Shown here: piece after piece, positions 2,950 through 55,045 of the stretch
Position numbering within the stretch: the first letter of the stretch is position 1
How the letters are laid out: every line of letters begins with the position of its first letter
DNA from: Bacteroidota bacterium
GTDB taxonomy: Bacteria > Bacteroidota > Ignavibacteria > Kapaibacteriales > UBA2268
Assembly (NCBI GenBank): GCA_024278075.1
Contig: JAJRTW010000155.1
Location: forward strand, 4,191-68,190
Length of the DNA stretch: 64,000 nt
Direction: 5' to 3'
The notes under the pieces: model-generated
Databases searched by the model: none
What the model saw: the letters and a program-made list of their open reading frames with translations, nothing else
What the model was told of the DNA's origin: nothing
Program-made: the position numbers and the translations under genes

Positions 2950-3987
2950 TTATTTTCCGAACATAGCATCTATATCATCCTGAGAAAACGGCTCTGAATG
3001 ATCGTCATCTTCCGATTCTTCAATTTCAATTCTATCAACTTTATTCTCAATATTCGTTGGTTCGGTATCATTATTATTCGTGTCGGCACTGCTGTTAATT
3101 GCCGCCGTTCCCGAATTGGCTTCGGATTCTTCAGTTTCGATATTTCCATTGAACATCGCATCAATATCCTCAGGCGTTACCGGCTCACGGCCGCTATCGG
3201 CATCTGCACGTCCATCAAAAACTTTGTCTACTTCGGCCTGCCTGGATTCTTTGTTGTCATAGGAGTTAACGGCTTCCGGGTCGAAAGCAATGTCTCTGTG
3301 AAGCCTTGACACGTTAATCTTCTCCGTATCATCTTCCTCCGAAACAATATCGCTAATATCGGTTGATTTAAACGTAGTCATTATCTTCGACAATTTATTG
3401 TGAATCGTTTCAAGCAAATGATTCACAGCAGCAATTTGCTGGGAAGAAATATCCTGAACCTGAAGAGACATCATAATCGAATTAGTATCGTTGCGGACAC
3501 TATCCAATATTTCGTTGGTCTCATTTTTCATTTTAATATATTCTTTATTCGGCTGCGATTTCAAGCCTTTGATAGAATTAGACAGTTGCGGCAGGATTTC
3601 CTGCAGATCGCTTTTCTGCTGAATTGCCTTGTGAATAATTTCAAGCAATTTAATCGGATTTTGCTTAGATTGCTCAACGATTTCGTCCATTCTTGCCATA
3701 TTCGTTGAAATAAGGTCTGCCTTGTAGAACAAACCGTCCACTATATCCATTATTTCGGTTGTTGCATGTTCGGTAGCCTCGGTAACTTTCGAAAGCTGTT
3801 CGGAAGCTCCGGGCATTTTCTTCATGTTGTCTTCAATCGATACGTTTATTTCATCAAGAACGGGATGAATCTCTTTTACAAATAAAAATATCTCTTCAAG
3901 AAATGGAATAACCCTTTGGCCAAGAACAAATAATAATCGTAATTCATCGGCTTTTTGCAACAATTCAGTAATATCTTTATCTTTCAT
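2950..3987 (-). CDS. CheZ-like CheY-P phosphatase candidate with two C-terminal FliM-N-like CheY-docking motifs
   Basis: 345 aa and helical. The motif 'LQVQDISSQQIAAV' matches the CheZ active-site pattern QD-x-x-x-Q (E. coli 'AQDFQDLTGQVI'). The acidic disordered tail has 'PEDIDAMFNG' and a terminal 'SQDDIDAMFGK' resembling FliM 'LSQDEIDALL'. Located inside the che operon. Confidence 0.45.
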   Translation of the reverse strand: MKDKDITELLQKADELRLLFVLGQRVIPFLEEIFLFVKEIHPVLDEINVSIEDNMKKMPGASEQLSKVTEATEHATTEIMDIVDGLFYKADLISTNMARMDEIVEQSKQNPIKLLEIIHKAIQQKSDLQEILPQLSNSIKGLKSQPNKEYIKMKNETNEILDSVRNDTNSIMMSLQVQDISSQQIAAVNHLLETIHNKLSKIMTTFKSTDISDIVSEEDDTEKINVSRLHRDIAFDPEAVNSYDNKESRQAEVDKVFDGRADADSGREPVTPEDIDAMFNGNIETEESEANSGTAAINSSADTNNNDTEPTNIENKVDRIEIEESEDDDHSEPFSQDDIDAMFGK

Positions 3988-8418: not shown

Positions 8419-8572
8419 CAGAACTATTCAATAGCCACGTGCTTTAGCTCGTGGAAGCCCAAATCCCCGAATTAAAACTCGGAGCTATATATTCCTTCAT
8501 ACTTCAATAGCCATGTGCTTTAGCTCGTGGAAGCCCAAATCCCCGAATTAAAACTCGGGGCTATAAATCTTT
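8419..8572. repeat. Tandem direct repeat, 2 x ~77 bp
   Basis: Units 'ttcaatagcca[ct]gtgctttagctcgtggaagcccaaatccccgaattaaaactcgg[ag]gctata' at ~8428 and ~8505 are ~97% identical. Each has an inverted repeat ccacg...cgtgg. Confidence 0.8.
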
Positions 8573-15984: not shown

Positions 15985-16244
15985 GCCAAGTCAGGTGTTA
16001 CACCTGACGTGCTTGAGCTGTCTTGTTTTGTCAGTTGTAACAACTGACGGTACATGGCAGGATGCAAACCTTTCAATCATTTGTAGGGGACGGTTCATAA
16101 CCGTCCCGAAATAATTGTCGTGTTGTTAGGGCAGGTTTGGAACCTGCCCCTACGATTCTTATTCTGTTATTGGCAACTTGCGATAACATAACGTAGTATT
16201 CGAGTATAAATTATGAGCCGCTCTTATTTTAACCGGACACTACT
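15985..16244. repeat. Repeat element copy E3: cluster of four perfect hairpins ending in the shared terminus 'ttttaaccggacactact'
   Basis: Hairpins tcaggtgttacacctga (15991), gtcagttgtaacaactgac (16030), gggacggttcataaccgtccc (16086) and agggcaggtttggaacctgcccct (16128). Flanked by the 18-bp perfect direct repeat 'tgttatggaataaaataa' (15915 and 16245). Confidence 0.65.
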
Positions 16245-23977: not shown

Positions 23978-24019
23978 TTTTGGCCACCTTAGCTCAGTGG
24001 TAGAGCAGCTGATTTGTAA
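23978..24019 (+). tRNA. Truncated tRNA-Thr(TGT): 5' half only (acceptor, D-arm, anticodon stem/loop), then divergence
   Basis: GCCACCT-TA-GCTC-AGTGGTA-GAGC-A-GCTGA-TTTGTAA-tc.. . The expected 3' anticodon-stem strand (TCAGC) and the T-arm are absent. Island junction. Confidence 0.6.
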
Positions 24020-24106
24020 TCTTCTATCTTATGCCGTAATCTGCTAAATAACAGCGTTTATTGATTGATGAGTAACCAGTGAGTAACCAAACAAACAGCT
24101 ACGGGA

Positions 24107-40380: not shown

Positions 40381-40689
40381 ATGGCATTAAGCAATTTAAC
40401 AGGAGAAGAAATGCAAAACACAGCAAAAACCAACGGCACGGCATTCACCGAAGAAGAAATCAAAAGAATGCAAGAGCAAATTGAAGATGAAAAGAAAAAA
40501 GAGGAAGAACGGGCAACGGAATGCTGGGATAAAATTCAAGCTATCCTCGAAGAATACGATCTGGAATTAACAACATTCGCCGGGCGGCAGCACATAGCGG
40601 AAATCACTAAGCAAATGATACTCGACCCGACGATACCGGGTGCGATGCTTGACATTAAAATCGGGAAAAAACAGGCGGTCAAAGCATGA
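40381..40689 (+). CDS. Hypothetical acidic protein
   Basis: 102 aa. Confidence 0.35.
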   Translation: MALSNLTGEEMQNTAKTNGTAFTEEEIKRMQEQIEDEKKKEEERATECWDKIQAILEEYDLELTTFAGRQHIAEITKQMILDPTIPGAMLDIKIGKKQAVKA

Positions 40690-40741
40690 GAACGGCTATA
40701 TTATTCAGGACTTATCAGATAAAATTAATAGGAGATTAGAC

Positions 40742-41038
40742 ATGAATATAGTAAATGAATTAAGAGATGAAATTGTAAAAATAGCGAAATCAAAACGATT
40801 AGGCATCCGCTTTACTGAAGCAAGCACGAGCGGTGCCGGCTATGGAAAAACATCTAAGATATTATTGTTCCCAATTAATGATCCACCCTGGGGTGTCCGA
40901 AGCAAAAGTGTTATAAAATACTGGAAATCCAACCAGGGTAAAAATGTAGGTACAACTAAAAATTCTGAACGATACAGAATATATCAAAAAGTAAAAATAT
41001 TCTTAAAAAGATATAAACCATCGAAAAAAACAAAATAG
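40742..41038 (+). CDS. Hypothetical basic protein
   Basis: The start was moved to the ATG preceded by the SD 'taggagatt'. Confidence 0.35.
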   Translation: MNIVNELRDEIVKIAKSKRLGIRFTEASTSGAGYGKTSKILLFPINDPPWGVRSKSVIKYWKSNQGKNVGTTKNSERYRIYQKVKIFLKRYKPSKKTK

Positions 41039-41049
41039 GCAGCAAAAGT

Positions 41050-41808
41050 ATGAGAACGGCTATATTATTCAGGGCTTATGACATGGATCAATCTACGTTG
41101 CTCCATTATTCGCAGTTGCAGAAGCAATGCAAGCACGTCCACATGCTCTACGACGCTACGGACAAACAGCCGGTTCACACAACGCTTGGTATGAATTTCA
41201 CCGAAGACGATTACCGCAAATCGGGTTATCCGTTGGCCACACTAAAGCAGATAGACGAAATGCCATCTGCACCAAAAAGTTCGCAACTGATATATTACAA
41301 CCCTGAAATATCTGTGCTATTGTTTTATAAGCAAAATCCGGGTTATGATTATTATCTGTCGCTCGAAAGTGATGTTATGTTCAATGGCGACTGGAACACG
41401 TTTCTTGATGCCATTGCGAAAGATGACAGCGATTTACTGGGGACATACACTACCCACGGGTGGGAGCGTGATCCCGAAACATTGAATTTCGATGTAGCGA
41501 ACAAACACAAAGAAATTATGTTCGGGCCGGTTCAGAGATATTCAAATAAGATGCTTGAAACTTTACATAAAGAGTATAAATCCGGCAAGCACGGTTTCTA
41601 TGAAGCGGTTGTACCGACAATAGCATTGATAAACGGGCTTTCGGTAAGCAATTTCGGGAAAGCAACTGGCAGGCAGTTCTACCACCCATTTACAATGTGC
41701 GGACATTACGTCCCTGCCTGGCAGGACATGATCGACATGGATAAATGGAAAAATCATCTTTTCCACCCGGTTAAAGACGAATTTTATAAGAATGCGGAGG
41801 CGGCCTAA
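41050..41808 (+). CDS. Hypothetical protein
   Basis: 252 aa. Its first 24 nt 'atgagaacggctatattattcagg' are duplicated at 40686. Confidence 0.4.
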   Translation: MRTAILFRAYDMDQSTLLHYSQLQKQCKHVHMLYDATDKQPVHTTLGMNFTEDDYRKSGYPLATLKQIDEMPSAPKSSQLIYYNPEISVLLFYKQNPGYDYYLSLESDVMFNGDWNTFLDAIAKDDSDLLGTYTTHGWERDPETLNFDVANKHKEIMFGPVQRYSNKMLETLHKEYKSGKHGFYEAVVPTIALINGLSVSNFGKATGRQFYHPFTMCGHYVPAWQDMIDMDKWKNHLFHPVKDEFYKNAEAA

Positions 41809-45950: not shown

Positions 45951-48900
45951 TTGAGCAACTGGAACCGCAAGTGGCCTCGCAAAGCCGATACAAAACCATC
46001 ATTAATGCGTGTCCTGAAAAGAATTCATAAACATTATATAGGATATGGTGCAGAGGCATTCAAATATAGTTTAGACGAATATATTAGGCTCTACTTGGAT
46101 TATAGGTTCCAGGGAAAGGGAATCAATAACTATAAAGGTGATATCGAATCAAGAGAATATATTGTAATGTATTACGGACTTGATACGCTCCCTGAGCCGT
46201 ATGCTTCATTGGTAAACGATTTTATTGGTCAAAGCAAGAATATATCATCTCCAACAATAAATTCAGGCAAGGACATGACATTAATGGAACAAGCACAGCA
46301 CAACTTCGAGAAAATAACGAAGCTGTATTCATTGGCCAAAGAGAAAGGGAAAATCAAACCTGATATGATCTCCGCTCTTGACAATGGATTTGAGTCTATT
46401 GGTGACTTGATTGGTGTGGTATATGAACCGGTAAATATTATAAACCCAGATAAATTAAAGAAAATCAACTATGCACCCGGCAATACGACAACAATTGAAA
46501 CGCCAAACGAATCCATAAAAGCAAAGTATGTGTTAGTGCCACTCATGGACTTAATAGAATCTAATGATCCGTATTCGTTTAAAAGGAACCCGGATTATCC
46601 TGAATTTTGCCAAACCAGGAATTATGCACAGACGAAAGCCGAACAAAATAAGGTAATTAGCTTTTCCAAAGATTTCAAACCGGAACATCTGATTAATAAT
46701 TCGCCGGACGCCACAACAGGCCCACCAATTATCACAAAAGAAGGGATCGTGCTTGGCGGAAATGGACGGGCAATGATTTTAAAGCGAATTCATCATAAAA
46801 AAGGTTTTGATGAGTATTCTCAATTATTAGAACGGAATTTAGAATCATTCGGATTTAGTCCAGGCTGTGCGGCCCACATGATTCTTGCCCGCATGATTGA
46901 TATTGACTATAAAAAATGTGCCGCATATAGTAATAAACTTAATCAATCGACTATGCAGGAACGGGACGCAGTGACACTCGGTATCGGCTATGCGAAGCAA
47001 ATTAGTGAACAGGATTATACAACACTCGCAAAAATATTTGAGAATTCCGAAGAATCAACTTTTTCGGCCACACTGAATAATGCCGTTTCGCAACGACAAA
47101 TCATTTCCGTACTGGAGAAGTCAGGGCTGATTACTCCACAAAACCGTACTCAATGGATTAGCGAAGGCACCGGCGAACTTTCCAAGCAAGGCCGTGCGAT
47201 ATTAGAATCCGTTCTTATCGGCTATATTATGCCGGATAAGGCATTGATGGAAGCGGCACAGAACTATACAAATAAATTAGTCAAGTCACTGCCATTATTG
47301 ATACAAATTCACAATATGTCCGGCACGTGGAATATAGTGCCGGATATAAAAACGGCTATCCGGGAAGAAGTTAAACGACGGCGTGCAGGTGCGACAAAGG
47401 CGGATTATTTACGGCAGGATGATATGTTCGCAAGTGGCAAATCGGATATTGTGCCGGAGAATGTTCAATTAGTTTGGAAAGCCCTGGACGGTGGGGTATT
47501 GCAATTCCGTGATTTCCTCAAGAAATACATTCGCACGGCAAACAATGAAATGTCCGGCGGCTCGATGTTCGGCGAATCCAAAGTAAAATCAATCGACGTT
47601 CTTCGCAAACACATTAGCAATACAGGACTTGGTGATAATATGTCATTAATGCAACAAGCACAGCAGCAGTTCGAGAAAATAACGAAGCTGTATTCATTGG
47701 CCAAAGAGAAGGGGAAAATCAAGTCTGATATGATCTCCGCTCTTGACAATGGATTTAAGTCTATCGGCGAATTGATTGGTGTGGTGTATGAGCCGGTGGT
47801 AAAGACAAGGACACGGGAGTGGGCTTTGATAATGAGTATTCTGGACACACATGAATTTTGCATGCATAAATCAAATTCTTCACAAAGAGAACGTAAAGAA
47901 TGCAGAGAATTAAACGAGTCCCGACAAAAGGAATTGTTAATACTAACATTGACAAAACCAATTAAGCCCATAATGGATATAACAGATTTTAGTAAAATTG
48001 AGGAAACAGTATATAATATATTATATGCCCGCAGACCTAATACTATAATATCACAGTTAAAGAAATATAGGATAAATCAAAAGCTAACTGATGAAATGAT
48101 TCTTGACGTTACGGCTATATATATGTCCGGTGAAACAAGCCGAAATCAGCCGATATTCCATCGCAAAGTAGATGCTTTAATGAAGCAAAAGAAGAAGAAT
48201 ATTAGACTATGGAATAAGATGAGAGCTTATCTCCCTACTCTTGGTACGACCGATAATACATTATGGGACATAGCATTTAAGGAAAAAGGCGATATAGTAT
48301 CGAGACATGGAGAGGAGATAATCTTTTCACCAACTTATGAAGAACTTATTTATTGGATATATGAATATAGTGATATAAAGCCAAAAGCTGAGACAGTTCC
48401 CAAACCACAGGAAAAGAAAACGGAGACTAAAACAAATAACAACAAATTCCCGTTCCCTGGCGATGCAATAAAAAAGACTGAATTTGATAAATGGTTCGAG
48501 ACTGCCGAAAGGAACTACAAAGCTAAAGATTTAAGTTATTCTGCATTCCAGGAATTGGATGAAATGTTCGCTCCCATAGGTGAAGACGACCAGAAGGCCA
48601 TTGTTCAATATCTGTTCGCCAATGCACCGGACAAACTTAAGAAATTAGTAATGTATGGTAAAAAAGCAGCAACCACTGGTTGGTGGGAAGCTGATAATAT
48701 GAGTAAAAATGCACCTCCGACAAGTGATTTCGACGCAGGAAAAGATATTCCTGCTGAATTCCAAAAACATAGACGAATCAAAATTGTTGACTATGAATTG
48801 AAACCGGACAATGAAAATCTTTGGGGAATTATAGGAACAAGCATCAGTACAGATGTTCACCGCCCCCCAATGAATGGGGCTGAGTTTAATGATAAAGGTG

Positions 48901-53434: not shown

Positions 53435-53500
53435 AACTTTTTTTTGGAATGCAGGCAGGATTTGAACCTGCGTAACGCCGCCCGTTCTGCATTCGAGGGG
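53435..53500 (-). repeat. tRNA 3'-end-like element A (T-arm 'gcaggttcaaatcctgc' + acceptor-like inverted repeat gaatgcag/ctgcattc)
   Basis: Minus strand: gaatgcag-aacgggcggcgttac-GCAGG-TTCAAAT-CCTGC-ctgcattcc. It is too short (~48 nt) to be a tRNA. About 90% identical to the element at 54978-55043. Confidence 0.6.
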
Positions 53501-53523
53501 TTATAATATAGAGTCGTAACCTG

Positions 53524-54096
53524 CTAATGTGATGAAACTTTATATTTATTAATTATCTCAATTATTTTATTTTCTTGCCTTGCTTGTTCCTTATATTTAT
53601 CAGCACAATCTGTAGAAAAGTCTACAGCCATACAAGCATAGTTTGCAGCTAAAACTGCGTTGGAATAAGAGTTAGCGTAAGTACCATCATGAATATTCTG
53701 ATTATAATAGTAAGCAGTTTTCGCTGCAAATTCAGCAGCAAAAGCAGCGTGCGCAGGTGCAACATGTGCATCTTCATAATCAAAGTATTCAGCAGAATCT
53801 TTACCTGCTTTGCTTGCATAAGCAGCCGCATGAGCTGCAAATTCTCTGCCATCTTCTGTGTTGTAATTTAATACTGTTTTGGCTGCTTTTATAGCGTGTT
53901 TGGGGCTATCATTGCGAGGATGTTCTTCAATATAATAATGCAGAACATTTTCAGCACAATCGATAGCAAATTCTAATACTATTTTTTGTCTCAGTTCTTC
54001 GCTATCGATTCTGCTAACTGTTAGGTTTTTTATCAACCGTGCTGTGAATTCTTCTGTTAGTAAGTATTTCATTTCGATTTTCCTGTTTATTGTCAA
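53524..54096 (-). CDS. Ala/His-rich helical-repeat protein (immunity-protein-like?)
   Basis: 190 aa with 'AAHAAAYASKA..AHAAFAAEFAAKTAYY..AVLAANYA' repeats. ATGA overlap with the upstream gene. Confidence 0.4.
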   Translation of the reverse strand: MTINRKIEMKYLLTEEFTARLIKNLTVSRIDSEELRQKIVLEFAIDCAENVLHYYIEEHPRNDSPKHAIKAAKTVLNYNTEDGREFAAHAAAYASKAGKDSAEYFDYEDAHVAPAHAAFAAEFAAKTAYYYNQNIHDGTYANSYSNAVLAANYACMAVDFSTDCADKYKEQARQENKIIEIINKYKVSSH

Positions 54097-54707
54097 AACA
54101 TTTTCCCCGGCGAGAACAACACTGTTTCTTTATACCAAAATTCGCTTAACGGGCCTTGCCCCGTGTTGTTGATTGTTATAGTGTACAACTTTTCCGCTGG
54201 ATCCGGCTTATAATTGTAAGCATGTCTTTCATTGCCCAGGCCGGTGGCATGGGCAAGCACGTAACAGCGTGCCGTACCCTTCGACACGTTGTTAAATACC
54301 ACTTCTCCATTGACAAATATTTTTGATATTTGACAATTTCCTTTCATTGCGTCTTCTTTTATTGCCTTGACCACGAGTTCCCAATGTACTCGTGGTACCT
54401 TATATGATGTTATCCGCAGAGTTTCATGCACGGATACATCATTATTGTTGTTGCTTTTAAATCCCATCTGCTTTAATTCTATTGCAACCGGATTGATGTC
54501 CCCCCGACGGTCTTCTATTCCGTCTCTGGTGACGCCCACGACGCCTTCGACTCGAACCGCCGTGGTGTCGTCCCACGGGTCATCGATGTTTGACACTTTT
54601 AAAAGGCCGCTTGGCCAATATGCTTTTACTCTATACTCGCAACCGATGGCTGTGAGTATAACATCTCCAATTTGTAATTCATTTTTCGAAAATAATGCTT
54701 TTTTCAT
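54093..54707 (-). CDS. Hypothetical protein (first gene of repeat-bracketed two-gene cassette)
   Basis: 204 aa. Confidence 0.4.
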   Translation of the reverse strand: MKKALFSKNELQIGDVILTAIGCEYRVKAYWPSGLLKVSNIDDPWDDTTAVRVEGVVGVTRDGIEDRRGDINPVAIELKQMGFKSNNNNDVSVHETLRITSYKVPRVHWELVVKAIKEDAMKGNCQISKIFVNGEVVFNNVSKGTARCYVLAHATGLGNERHAYNYKPDPAEKLYTITINNTGQGPLSEFWYKETVLFSPGKMF

Positions 54708-54714
54708 CTCAATT

Positions 54715-54900
54715 CTCCTGTTTATTGTGTCTTGTTCTCAAAATCCCTTTCTCGTCCCTTTCCCTTATAATAACCCGTTTTGTATCCAAGTGTTCTTCTG
54801 ACAATCCCATCCACATCACTTGATCCCCATTTGCATCATATTCGGCTTGCCGATAAACACCGTTTCTTTCCCAAAACCTTACTTCATTTCAGTCTCCATT
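54715..54900 (-). pseudogene. Frameshifted partial duplicate of the N-terminus of the 55046..55540 gene
   Basis: The 24-nt 'catttcagtctccatttgaattatt' (RBS + METEM start) is duplicated at 54884 and 55524. The downstream +1 frame encodes 'FWERNGVYRQAEYDANGDQVMW..', the same Y-x-D-x-N-G repeat type. Confidence 0.45.
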
Positions 54901-54977
54901 TGAATTATTTATCCCATTCTGGCATATCTTCCCAAGCTGCAATCATATCTTCATTTGATTATTGATAAAAAAATTCT

Positions 54978-55043
54978 TGAACTCGATTTGGGATGCAGCC
55001 AAGATTTGAACCTGCGTAACGCCGACCGCTCTGCATTCTGTAG
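54978..55043 (-). repeat. tRNA 3'-end-like element B (copy of element A)
   Basis: 'gggatgcagccaagatttgaacctgcgtaacgccgaccgctctgcattc' is about 90% identical to element A, with the same 'gaact' leader. Confidence 0.6.
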
Positions 55044-55045
55044 CA

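Follow-up and report, generated by a model that had tools for sequence, protein, structure and literature searches.

A pair of short direct repeats was analysed in a 64,000-nt stretch of contig JAJRTW010000155.1 (assembly GCA_024278075.1) of a Bacteroidota bacterium, referred to below as the window. The two copies, termed element A and element B, almost certainly derive from a type II, tyrosine-type tRNA that shrank to a minihelix, in which acceptor stem, variable arm and T arm were kept and the D and anticodon arms are gone. Both are located on the minus strand, which is also the strand of the surrounding genes, i.e. the tRNA-like sense equals the mRNA sense. Element B lies 7 nt behind the stop codon (TAA) of an ORFan gene, here called X, and element A 29 nt behind the stop codon of a gene for a 182-aa protein; 53 nt further downstream a gene for a 101-aa protein starts. 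Each element probably ends one of two tandem gene units. We tentatively favour the reading that the minihelix is a 3' module of gene cassettes, which may have been spread by duplication or recombination and which possibly acts as a signal for mRNA processing or stability. The elements are a real and anatomically unusual feature, the role of which is uncertain.

Fold and tRNA ancestry of the elements

The direct repeat has an ungapped core of 52 nt, in which 47 of the 52 positions are identical (90%), and the two copies are spaced by 1,544 nt. The initial annotation had given the identity of two 66-nt intervals as about 90%; this value holds for the core, whereas the full intervals agree at 53 of 68 positions. 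In dinucleotide shuffles of the surrounding 13.7-kb region, repeats of 20 nt with at most two mismatches occurred with a mean of 0.3 per shuffle, so that the A/B pair lies far beyond chance. A covariance model built from A and B was run unfiltered on both strands of the 64-kb window and did not yield a third copy; a 17-mer look-alike at position 16131 was rejected as an ordinary hairpin.

The structured core of A (53447-53494) reads GAATGCAG-AACG-GGCGG-CGTT-AC-GCAGG-TTCAAAT-CCTGC-CTGCATTC on the minus strand and is directly followed by CAAAAAAAA. GAATGCAG pairs with CTGCATTC to form an acceptor stem of 8 bp, which carries a variable-arm hairpin of 4 bp and a T stem of 5 bp with the loop TTCAAAT. 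The predicted folding energy is -19.2 to -20.3 kcal/mol (z = -2.4) with an ensemble share of 0.79, and the resulting Y shape forms both in isolation and inside the full 134-nt spacer. Since a perfect complement of an 8-mer at a fixed position has a probability of ~1.5e-5, closure of the 8-bp stem cannot be attributed to chance.

Element B differs from A by two substitutions that break pairs (A.C in the acceptor stem and G.G in the T stem), two that give G.U wobbles and one in a loop. Its T arm has kept the loop and the loop-closing G-C pair, next to one G.U pair and the G.G mismatch. The Y fold of B reaches -10.1 kcal/mol with an ensemble share of 0.07; on the bare 48-nt core it ties with a different minimum free energy (MFE) fold, and together with the flanks it is no longer the MFE fold (73-nt fold, z = +1.3). 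Thus, the earlier description of an 8-bp stem, a short hairpin and a perfect T arm in each copy applies exactly to A and fails for B, which has mismatches in both stems.

A stretch of 25 nt in the elements matches the variable arm plus T arm of genuine long-arm (type II) tRNAs without a single difference. The exact 20-mer GCGTTACGCAGGTTCAAATC, which spans the junction of hairpin and T arm, was searched in 2.9 million viral contigs and in one genome per species. It was found at one locus in each of the two collections, and both loci are real tRNAs in the same register as the elements: a 91-nt long-arm tRNA on a viral contig (L001) and a tRNA-Tyr(GTA) in L002. In both tRNAs, ACGC-loop-GCGT-TAC-GCAGGTTCAAATCCTGC constitutes the variable arm and then the T arm. 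As the matches to real tRNAs fall on these two arms in the same register, the "short hairpin" of the elements corresponds to the variable arm. A blastn search of the element against 50,697 phage records returned exclusively T arms of real tRNAs. The best match in Rfam was tRNA-Sec, which was obtained for A only (18 bits, gathering score 47); members of this family have an acceptor stem of 8 bp together with a long variable arm.

The T arm of the elements has the features of a canonical tRNA, namely a 5-bp stem, a loop of the form TTCRANN and the loop-closing G-C pair (G53:C61), as in the GCAGG-TTCAAAT-CCTGC of A. A cloverleaf is not formed, with only 15 nt between the acceptor 5' strand and the T arm, which bears out the observation that D and anticodon arms are missing. 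The suggestion that the elements are tRNA-like structured RNAs was thereby upheld for ancestry and shape (25-nt identity, sense to the operon), with B as a structurally degraded copy. Other assignments were considered and rejected. The tRNA-like domain of a transfer-messenger RNA (tmRNA) or a Y RNA had no match in Rfam or ARAGORN, CRISPR-like or diversity-generating retroelement repeats do not fit two copies with differences that are not adenine-specific, and a coding sequence was discarded because B is crossed only by a spurious open reading frame (ORF) on the plus strand.

The viral contig L001 (IMGVR_UViG_3300002307_000573) carries seven tRNA genes. Its 91-nt tRNA at 3684-3774 (plus strand), the variable arm and T arm of which match the studied elements, was called Met (CAT) by ARAGORN and has a long variable arm, which is unusual with a CAT anticodon.

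Two tandem units around the elements

Read 5' to 3' on the minus strand, the region consists of a start module with ribosome-binding site (RBS), gene X, element B, a decayed start module, a second start module, a remnant (X') of a diverged paralogue of X, the gene for a 204-aa protein, the gene for the 182-aa protein, element A and the 101-aa gene (Table 1). The repeat of the start module (641 nt apart) interleaves with the element repeat. Unit 1 is composed of start module, X and B, whereas unit 2 is composed of start module, X' remnant, 204-aa gene, 182-aa gene and A. The ends of the units are conserved (27/28 in the start module, 47/52 in the element), while their coding middles are 32% identical or unrelated. 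We consider it probable from this layout that there are two tandem units, each ended by one element, rather than one insert bracketed by repeats.

This arrangement differs in several respects from the initial annotation, according to which the repeats flank exactly two genes coupled by an ATGA overlap. The repeats enclose the 204-aa and 182-aa genes plus about 330 nt of pseudogene debris. The 204-aa gene stops with TGA at 54093-54095, and the 182-aa gene most likely starts from ATG 54072, which is separated from the preceding gene by 20 nt with an RBS. This ATG is favoured over the TTG that overlaps the stop codon because it has its own RBS, and it also gives the recorded product; the proposed coupling was therefore dropped.

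A frameshifted duplicate of the N-terminus of X, including its RBS, had been suggested at 54715-54900. A 28-nt copy of RBS and first codons is indeed present (27/28), but the remainder corresponds to residues 84-139 of X, i.e. the C-terminal half, and is out of frame after a stop codon; the reading frame of X' differs from that of the start module at 54885-54912. From the copied 28-nt module and the out-of-frame C-terminal match it follows that the "duplicate" is a composite, in which the start module would be a recent copy and the paralogue attached to it old and internally deleted. For the decayed start module just downstream of B, the score was reached in none of 500 shuffles, and a 13-codon ORF remnant follows it. 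The 204-aa gene is surrounded by a direct repeat of its own, which is made of start modules with 24 of 27 nt identical.

Table 1. Features of the array that contains elements A and B. GC3, GC content at third codon positions.
Feature	Positions	Strand	Remarks
Element A, tRNA-derived minihelix, intact	53443-53494	-	fold and 25-nt identity to real tRNAs
Element B, weakened copy	54987-55038	-	5 substitutions relative to A
Gene X, ORFan	55046-55540	-	164 aa from first ATG; recorded form 160 aa from ATG 55528 (P0003)
Start module of X	55526-55553	-	28 nt; RBS GGAG and start codons, AT(C)AATAATTCAAATGGAGACTGAAATG
Third X start module, decayed, just downstream of B	54948-54969	-	21/23 matches, one gap
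Second X start module	54885-54912	-	27/28; heads a 2-codon ORF only (ATG AAG TAA)
X', remnant of diverged X paralogue	54709-54882	-	32% identity to X residues 84-139, E = 6e-8
204-aa gene, ORFan, beta-rich product	54093-54707	-	GC3 0.45; own 27-nt flanking repeat
182-aa gene, all-helical product with Ala/His repeats	53524-54072	-	GC3 0.21; borderline Imm5_like; on record as P0004
Boundary repeat 1, A/B elements	53443-53494, 54987-55038	-	
Boundary repeat 2, start modules of X	55526-55553, 54885-54912	-	
Boundary repeat 3, around 204-aa gene	54702-54728, 54067-54093	-	
Boundary repeat 4, around Tad2-like gene	58512-58532, 58825-58845	-	21 nt, RBS plus start; common to next gene
Boundary repeat 5, exactly flanking DNA methylase gene	59720-59747, 60340-60367	-	22 nt perfect (28 nt with at most two mismatches)
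Boundary repeat 6, start of 81-aa gene	57611-57632, 57771-57792	-	22 nt, GAATGATGGAAAAGT...
Tad2-like gene	58537-58830	-	GC3 0.30, adjacent gene 0.58
DNA methylase gene			GC3 0.32, DUF5131 gene 0.56

Boundary repeats and composition of the array

To define the boundary repeats, pairs of at least 20 nt with at most two mismatches and at most 3 kb apart were counted in the 13.7-kb array, and dinucleotide shuffles were used as control. Six repeat pairs were obtained, compared with 0.3 in the shuffles, and 6/6 lie at gene boundaries. The genes flanked by boundary repeats also differ in GC3 from their neighbours, as is seen for the 204-aa gene and the 182-aa gene, for the Tad2-like gene and the adjacent gene and for the DNA methylase gene and the DUF5131 gene (Table 1). 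The six boundary repeats and the mosaic of GC3 are there in the DNA; together they are the signature of an array that would have been built gene by gene via short homologies, with recombination as the mechanism that we infer. Such a process would be similar to that demonstrated for the PeSL cassettes of T4-type phages (PMC2839356).

The Tad2-like gene (Thoeris anti-defence 2) was identified by a Pfam match with E = 2e-7. The DNA methylase and the DUF5131 protein encoded upstream of it both end in KQLEMVG, and the DUF5131 protein is shortened (120 aa on a profile of 243 positions). Judged from these sequences, the DNA methylase gene seems to have been inserted, as a single gene, at the end of the DUF5131 gene. 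The upstream copy of the 81-aa gene start, located 160 nt upstream, overlaps the stop codon of a 102-aa gene and represents an orphan start module like the copy that precedes X'. A further repeat of 53 nt (85% identical), comprising the RBS and first codons of two adjacent genes, is present on the plus strand at 40668-40720 and 41032-41084; duplication of start regions is thus not confined to the accessory array.

Proteins encoded in the cassettes

The pair of genes between the elements had been proposed to form a toxin/immunity pair. In favour of this idea there is one borderline match of the 182-aa protein to the Pfam family Imm5_like (PF21805), with 25.7 bits at a cutoff of 25, i.e. a margin of 0.7 bits (E = 1.1e-5, residues 33-105 of a 190-aa reading); Imm5_like is also the precomputed assignment for P0004. 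However, the partner is an ORFan with a GC3 very different from that of the 182-aa gene. No toxin domain was found as partner of Imm5_like, as no family could credibly be assigned to the 204-aa protein from Pfam, PHROGs, NCBIfam, PADLOC or PDB sequences. Because their GC3 differs strongly and a separate repeat flanks the 204-aa gene, the two genes look separately acquired, and the apparent gene-by-gene mosaic of the array argues against a single co-evolved toxin/immunity pair.

For X and the 204-aa protein, searches of Pfam, PHROGs, NCBIfam, PADLOC, 5.8 billion clustered proteins and translated phage genomes yielded nothing credible. A full HMMER pass of the 204-aa protein over 1.84 billion representatives gave heterogeneous repeat proteins only (DUF11, MBG, YadA), which we regard as compositional matches. 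Homologue searches with X, the 204-aa and the 182-aa protein returned only these proteins themselves, tblastn of all three and blastn of the region against phages gave nothing, and exact-protein look-ups were without match. With five neighbouring proteins as queries, no related loci were detected in viral contigs. Single-sequence structure prediction was too poor for a fold search for the 204-aa protein (predicted local distance difference test, pLDDT, 39) and too weak for the 182-aa protein, which was predicted as all-helical in a poor model (pLDDT 53). Repeated D-G / YDxxG-type motifs (e.g. KYDEKGREI, EYDENGKM) are present in gene X as well as in the X' remnant. These beta-hairpin-like motifs resemble YwqK/MORN-like antitoxin or immunity repeats, a likeness that no profile match supported.

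Genomic setting

The first ~23,930 nt of the window are ordinary bacterial chromosome with genes for CheA, CheZ, a HEAT-repeat protein, an M20 peptidase, an OPT transporter, an LPG synthase, a PUA-methyltransferase and a SIS protein. An OPT protein of the same 90%-identity cluster is encoded on a contig of a close relative; as this contig also has Por_Secre_tail and TonB/CarboxypepD_reg genes, the host would probably belong to the Fibrobacterota-Chlorobiota-Bacteroidota (FCB) group. Two tandem 66-nt repeats (95% identical, hairpin-forming) were noted in this part at 8427-8492 and 8503-8568 (plus strand), just upstream of a gene for a Big_5 / Ig-like protein. Exactly at the junction of chromosome and foreign block, at 23983-24024 (plus strand), the 5' half of a tRNA-Thr(TGT) is located, comprising acceptor 5' strand, D arm and anticodon stem and loop. 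Similarity to real tRNA-Thr stops after the anticodon loop, and the 3' half was not found anywhere in the window. Judged from this half gene, the integrated element appears to split rather than restore the tRNA-Thr gene on the junction side that lies within the window.

From the tRNA-Thr half to the end of the window extends a foreign, tightly packed block. Its part from 24 to 50 kb (24500-50400, ~26 kb) is co-directional on the plus strand and has almost no Pfam or PHROG matches, with the exception of a glycosyltransferase-like PHROG and of a 1,476-aa protein at the end of this part that combines a ddrB-type ParB domain with a P-loop ATPase domain. The 1,476-aa gene contains an internal repeat of 158 nt (46275-46432 and 47640-47797, 91% identical). 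From 51.2 to 64 kb follows a one-directional minus-strand array of small genes, which includes the studied elements and encodes the Tad2-like anti-Thoeris protein, the DNA methylase, DUF5131, DUF488 and a deoxyribosyltransferase-like protein. We call the foreign block a putative phage-like integrated element, with A and B in its accessory array.

Discussion

To explain the elements, we tentatively favour a conserved 3' end module of gene cassettes that would have been multiplied by duplication and by recombination at short homologies. This would also have left the five other boundary repeats in the 14-kb array, and units would have been made and then exchanged at their conserved ends. Minihelices of acceptor stem and T arm are suitable substrates for RNase P, RNase Z, the CCA-adding enzyme and the enzymes that modify the T loop. 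In a transcript, intact A would fold as the "top half" of a tRNA and might meet RNase P, RNase Z and 3' exonucleases. It could serve as a substrate of such enzymes or as a block to 3' exonucleases, resembling the t-elements of plant mitochondria (PMC1920247). In this way A might punctuate or stabilise the polycistronic mRNA, with B as a weakened version. A function of the elements at the RNA level is, by itself, rather doubtful on our analysis.

If A were truly handled by tRNA-end enzymes, a bacterial mobile element would punctuate its polycistronic mRNA in the manner of tRNAs, for which no earlier case is known to us. It would further mean that a tRNA stump was recruited as a portable cassette end, by which RNA processing would be tied to the reshuffling of accessory and anti-defence genes. 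If the elements were relics only, they would still document, together with the five boundary repeats and the GC3 mosaic, the assembly of an array gene by gene via homologies of 20-50 nt. Support is thin for both readings, as there are just two copies, of which B is decayed, and relatives were not found.

Several findings weigh against a conserved module. Rfam gave no match for the elements at the gathering score, and ARAGORN called no tRNA in the window or the region in its standard, mitochondrial, low-threshold (-ps) and tmRNA modes. A CCA end is not encoded, as C-CAA follows the seventh acceptor pair in both copies. No homologous element was present in the viral, genome and metagenome collections scanned: the architecture pattern of acceptor strand, 12-18 nt, T arm and acceptor strand had no match in viral contigs, and the pattern of T arm plus acceptor retrieved one unrelated tRNA-like 3' fragment (L003) in metagenomes. 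There are only two copies, the five differences of which include two that break pairs and none that is compensatory, and B has lost half of the folding energy of A. Finally, conservation of the short module could stem from recent copying and not from selection; the high identity of the modules compared with the intervening coding sequence is compatible with either.

The main rival is an inert relic. Here, a tRNA gene borne by the element would have lost its middle by deletion, the stump would have been copied passively with the neighbouring DNA during duplication and reshuffling of the paralogue array, and both copies would now be without function. The pair-breaking changes in B and its halved stability, the absence of further copies in the window and in the collections searched and the debris in the region (X' remnant, three copies of the start module, 13-codon remnant) point in this direction, and fragments of tRNA genes are common by-products of mobile elements (PMC9897764). 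On the other hand, a random deletion is unlikely to have taken out just the D and anticodon arms and to have spared a perfect 8-bp stem on the T arm, as in A. Moreover, the elements are 90% conserved next to coding sequence that is 32% identical or unrelated, and both copies are in sense to the operon, right after stop codons. We regard a relic as fairly possible, though somewhat less likely than a module.

The initial annotation had interpreted the repeats as scars of attachment (att) sites of a nested mobile cassette, i.e. as recognition sites at which a site-specific recombinase inserts and excises the 1.5-kb segment. Direct repeats at both ends of a 1,544-bp segment, a tRNA-derived sequence typical of att sites and accessory ORFans, one of them with a borderline match to an immunity protein, would agree with this, and in a loose sense the elements do lie at cassette boundaries amid other boundary repeats. 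However, the proteins of the 64-kb window that were scanned include neither an integrase nor a recombinase. Att sites of the tRNA type are 3' fragments, whereas A and B carry both acceptor strands, and the junction of the island is an unrelated tRNA-Thr(TGT) 5' half. Copies of the start module and of the element alternate, which is the order of tandem units; the 204-aa gene is enclosed by a separate repeat and has a GC3 unlike that of its partner; and the core motifs of integron attC sites are absent. A function as att-like sites is thus very unlikely.

It was also considered whether the minihelix is excised and matured to act in trans as a tRNA mimic, either as decoy or sponge for a tRNA-targeting defence system or as substrate of a tRNA-binding enzyme. 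The retained parts are those that are read by enzymes ignoring the anticodon, and the array also holds the Tad2-like anti-defence gene and the DNA methylase gene. Most tRNA-targeting nucleases known to us, though, cut in the anticodon loop, which is absent here; in addition, a CCA end is lacking, B is decayed, homologues were not found and no promoter was seen. Variable arm and T arm resemble those of tyrosine tRNA, and a phage tRNA-Tyr counters a retron effector that depletes tRNA-Tyr (PMC11555353). We judge such a mimic, too, to be very unlikely. The same low probability is given to a combined form, in which a type II tRNA reduced to a minihelix in the accessory mRNA would be freed by RNase P and RNase Z as a trans-acting small RNA and would in addition be the portable 3' end of the cassettes; such an RNA could be a decoy for a defence nuclease that targets tRNA (e.g. 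tRNA-Tyr) or a mimic that is charged or CCA-tagged.

A transcription terminator or attenuator, in which the Y structure would stop or pause RNA polymerase between cassettes, is likewise very unlikely. In its favour, A is stable, GC-rich (54% compared with 39% for the region) and intergenic, and the PeSL modules of T4 pair a stem-loop terminator with a promoter (PMC2839356). On the gene strand, however, neither copy is followed by a U tract (downstream of A there is A8), for which reason an intrinsic terminator was rejected, a promoter/terminator scan calls none there, and five more co-directional genes follow A with no convincing promoter between them.

Comparison with known systems

Integron attC sites share with A and B a structured repeat at the 3' end of promoterless cassettes in a one-directional array of small ORFan genes. 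Unlike attC sites, which are imperfect long hairpins, the elements have a Y-shaped tRNA fold. The R''/R' cores (RYYYAAC / GTTRRRY) do not occur in the elements, where the closest sequences, GCGTAAC and GTTCTGC, deviate from the consensus and do not constitute the paired arms, and the integron integrase IntI was not found among the scanned proteins of the window.

The tRNA fragments left at att sites by integrating elements represent one side of the tRNA gene that served as target, as a rule its 3' part, and agree with it in sequence (PMC9897764). Like these, A and B are derived from a tRNA, are located within or at the border of a mobile element and escape detection as a tRNA gene. They differ in that they join both acceptor strands over an internal deletion, have an internal position in the mobile element and show no match to the tRNA-Thr half at the junction.

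In plant mitochondria, t-elements with tRNA-like acceptor/T-arm structures form the ends of mRNAs (PMC1920247). With t-elements and with the tRNA punctuation of animal mitochondria, A and B have in common an incomplete tRNA shape with the acceptor stem on the T arm, in sense and beside protein genes, and a location at which tRNA-end enzymes, by cutting, would set the ends of mRNAs. The coaxial arrangement of acceptor stem and T arm is formed by 8 + 5 bp in A and weakly in B. In contrast to t-elements, A and B are found in a bacterial integrated element, have kept a variable-arm hairpin and exist as two copies, one of which is degraded; they cannot be claimed as members of this class.

The PeSL modules of T4-type phages combine a sigma-70 early promoter with a terminator stem-loop and number in the dozens, whereas A and B are tRNA-derived and two in number, and the other boundary repeats of the array are ribosome-binding/start modules. 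The promoter/terminator scan found no PeSL-type sigma-70 promoter with terminator, and no U tract, at either element. Nevertheless, both are short, conserved non-coding modules with a stem-loop that are repeated in the same orientation between small, non-essential ORFan genes, and PeSLs provide the homology for insertion, deletion and replacement of the intervening genes (PMC2839356, PMC4122927). In T4-type phages it was shown experimentally that such short repeated regulatory cassettes recombine, thereby shuffling ORFans and making mini-circles (PMC2839356).

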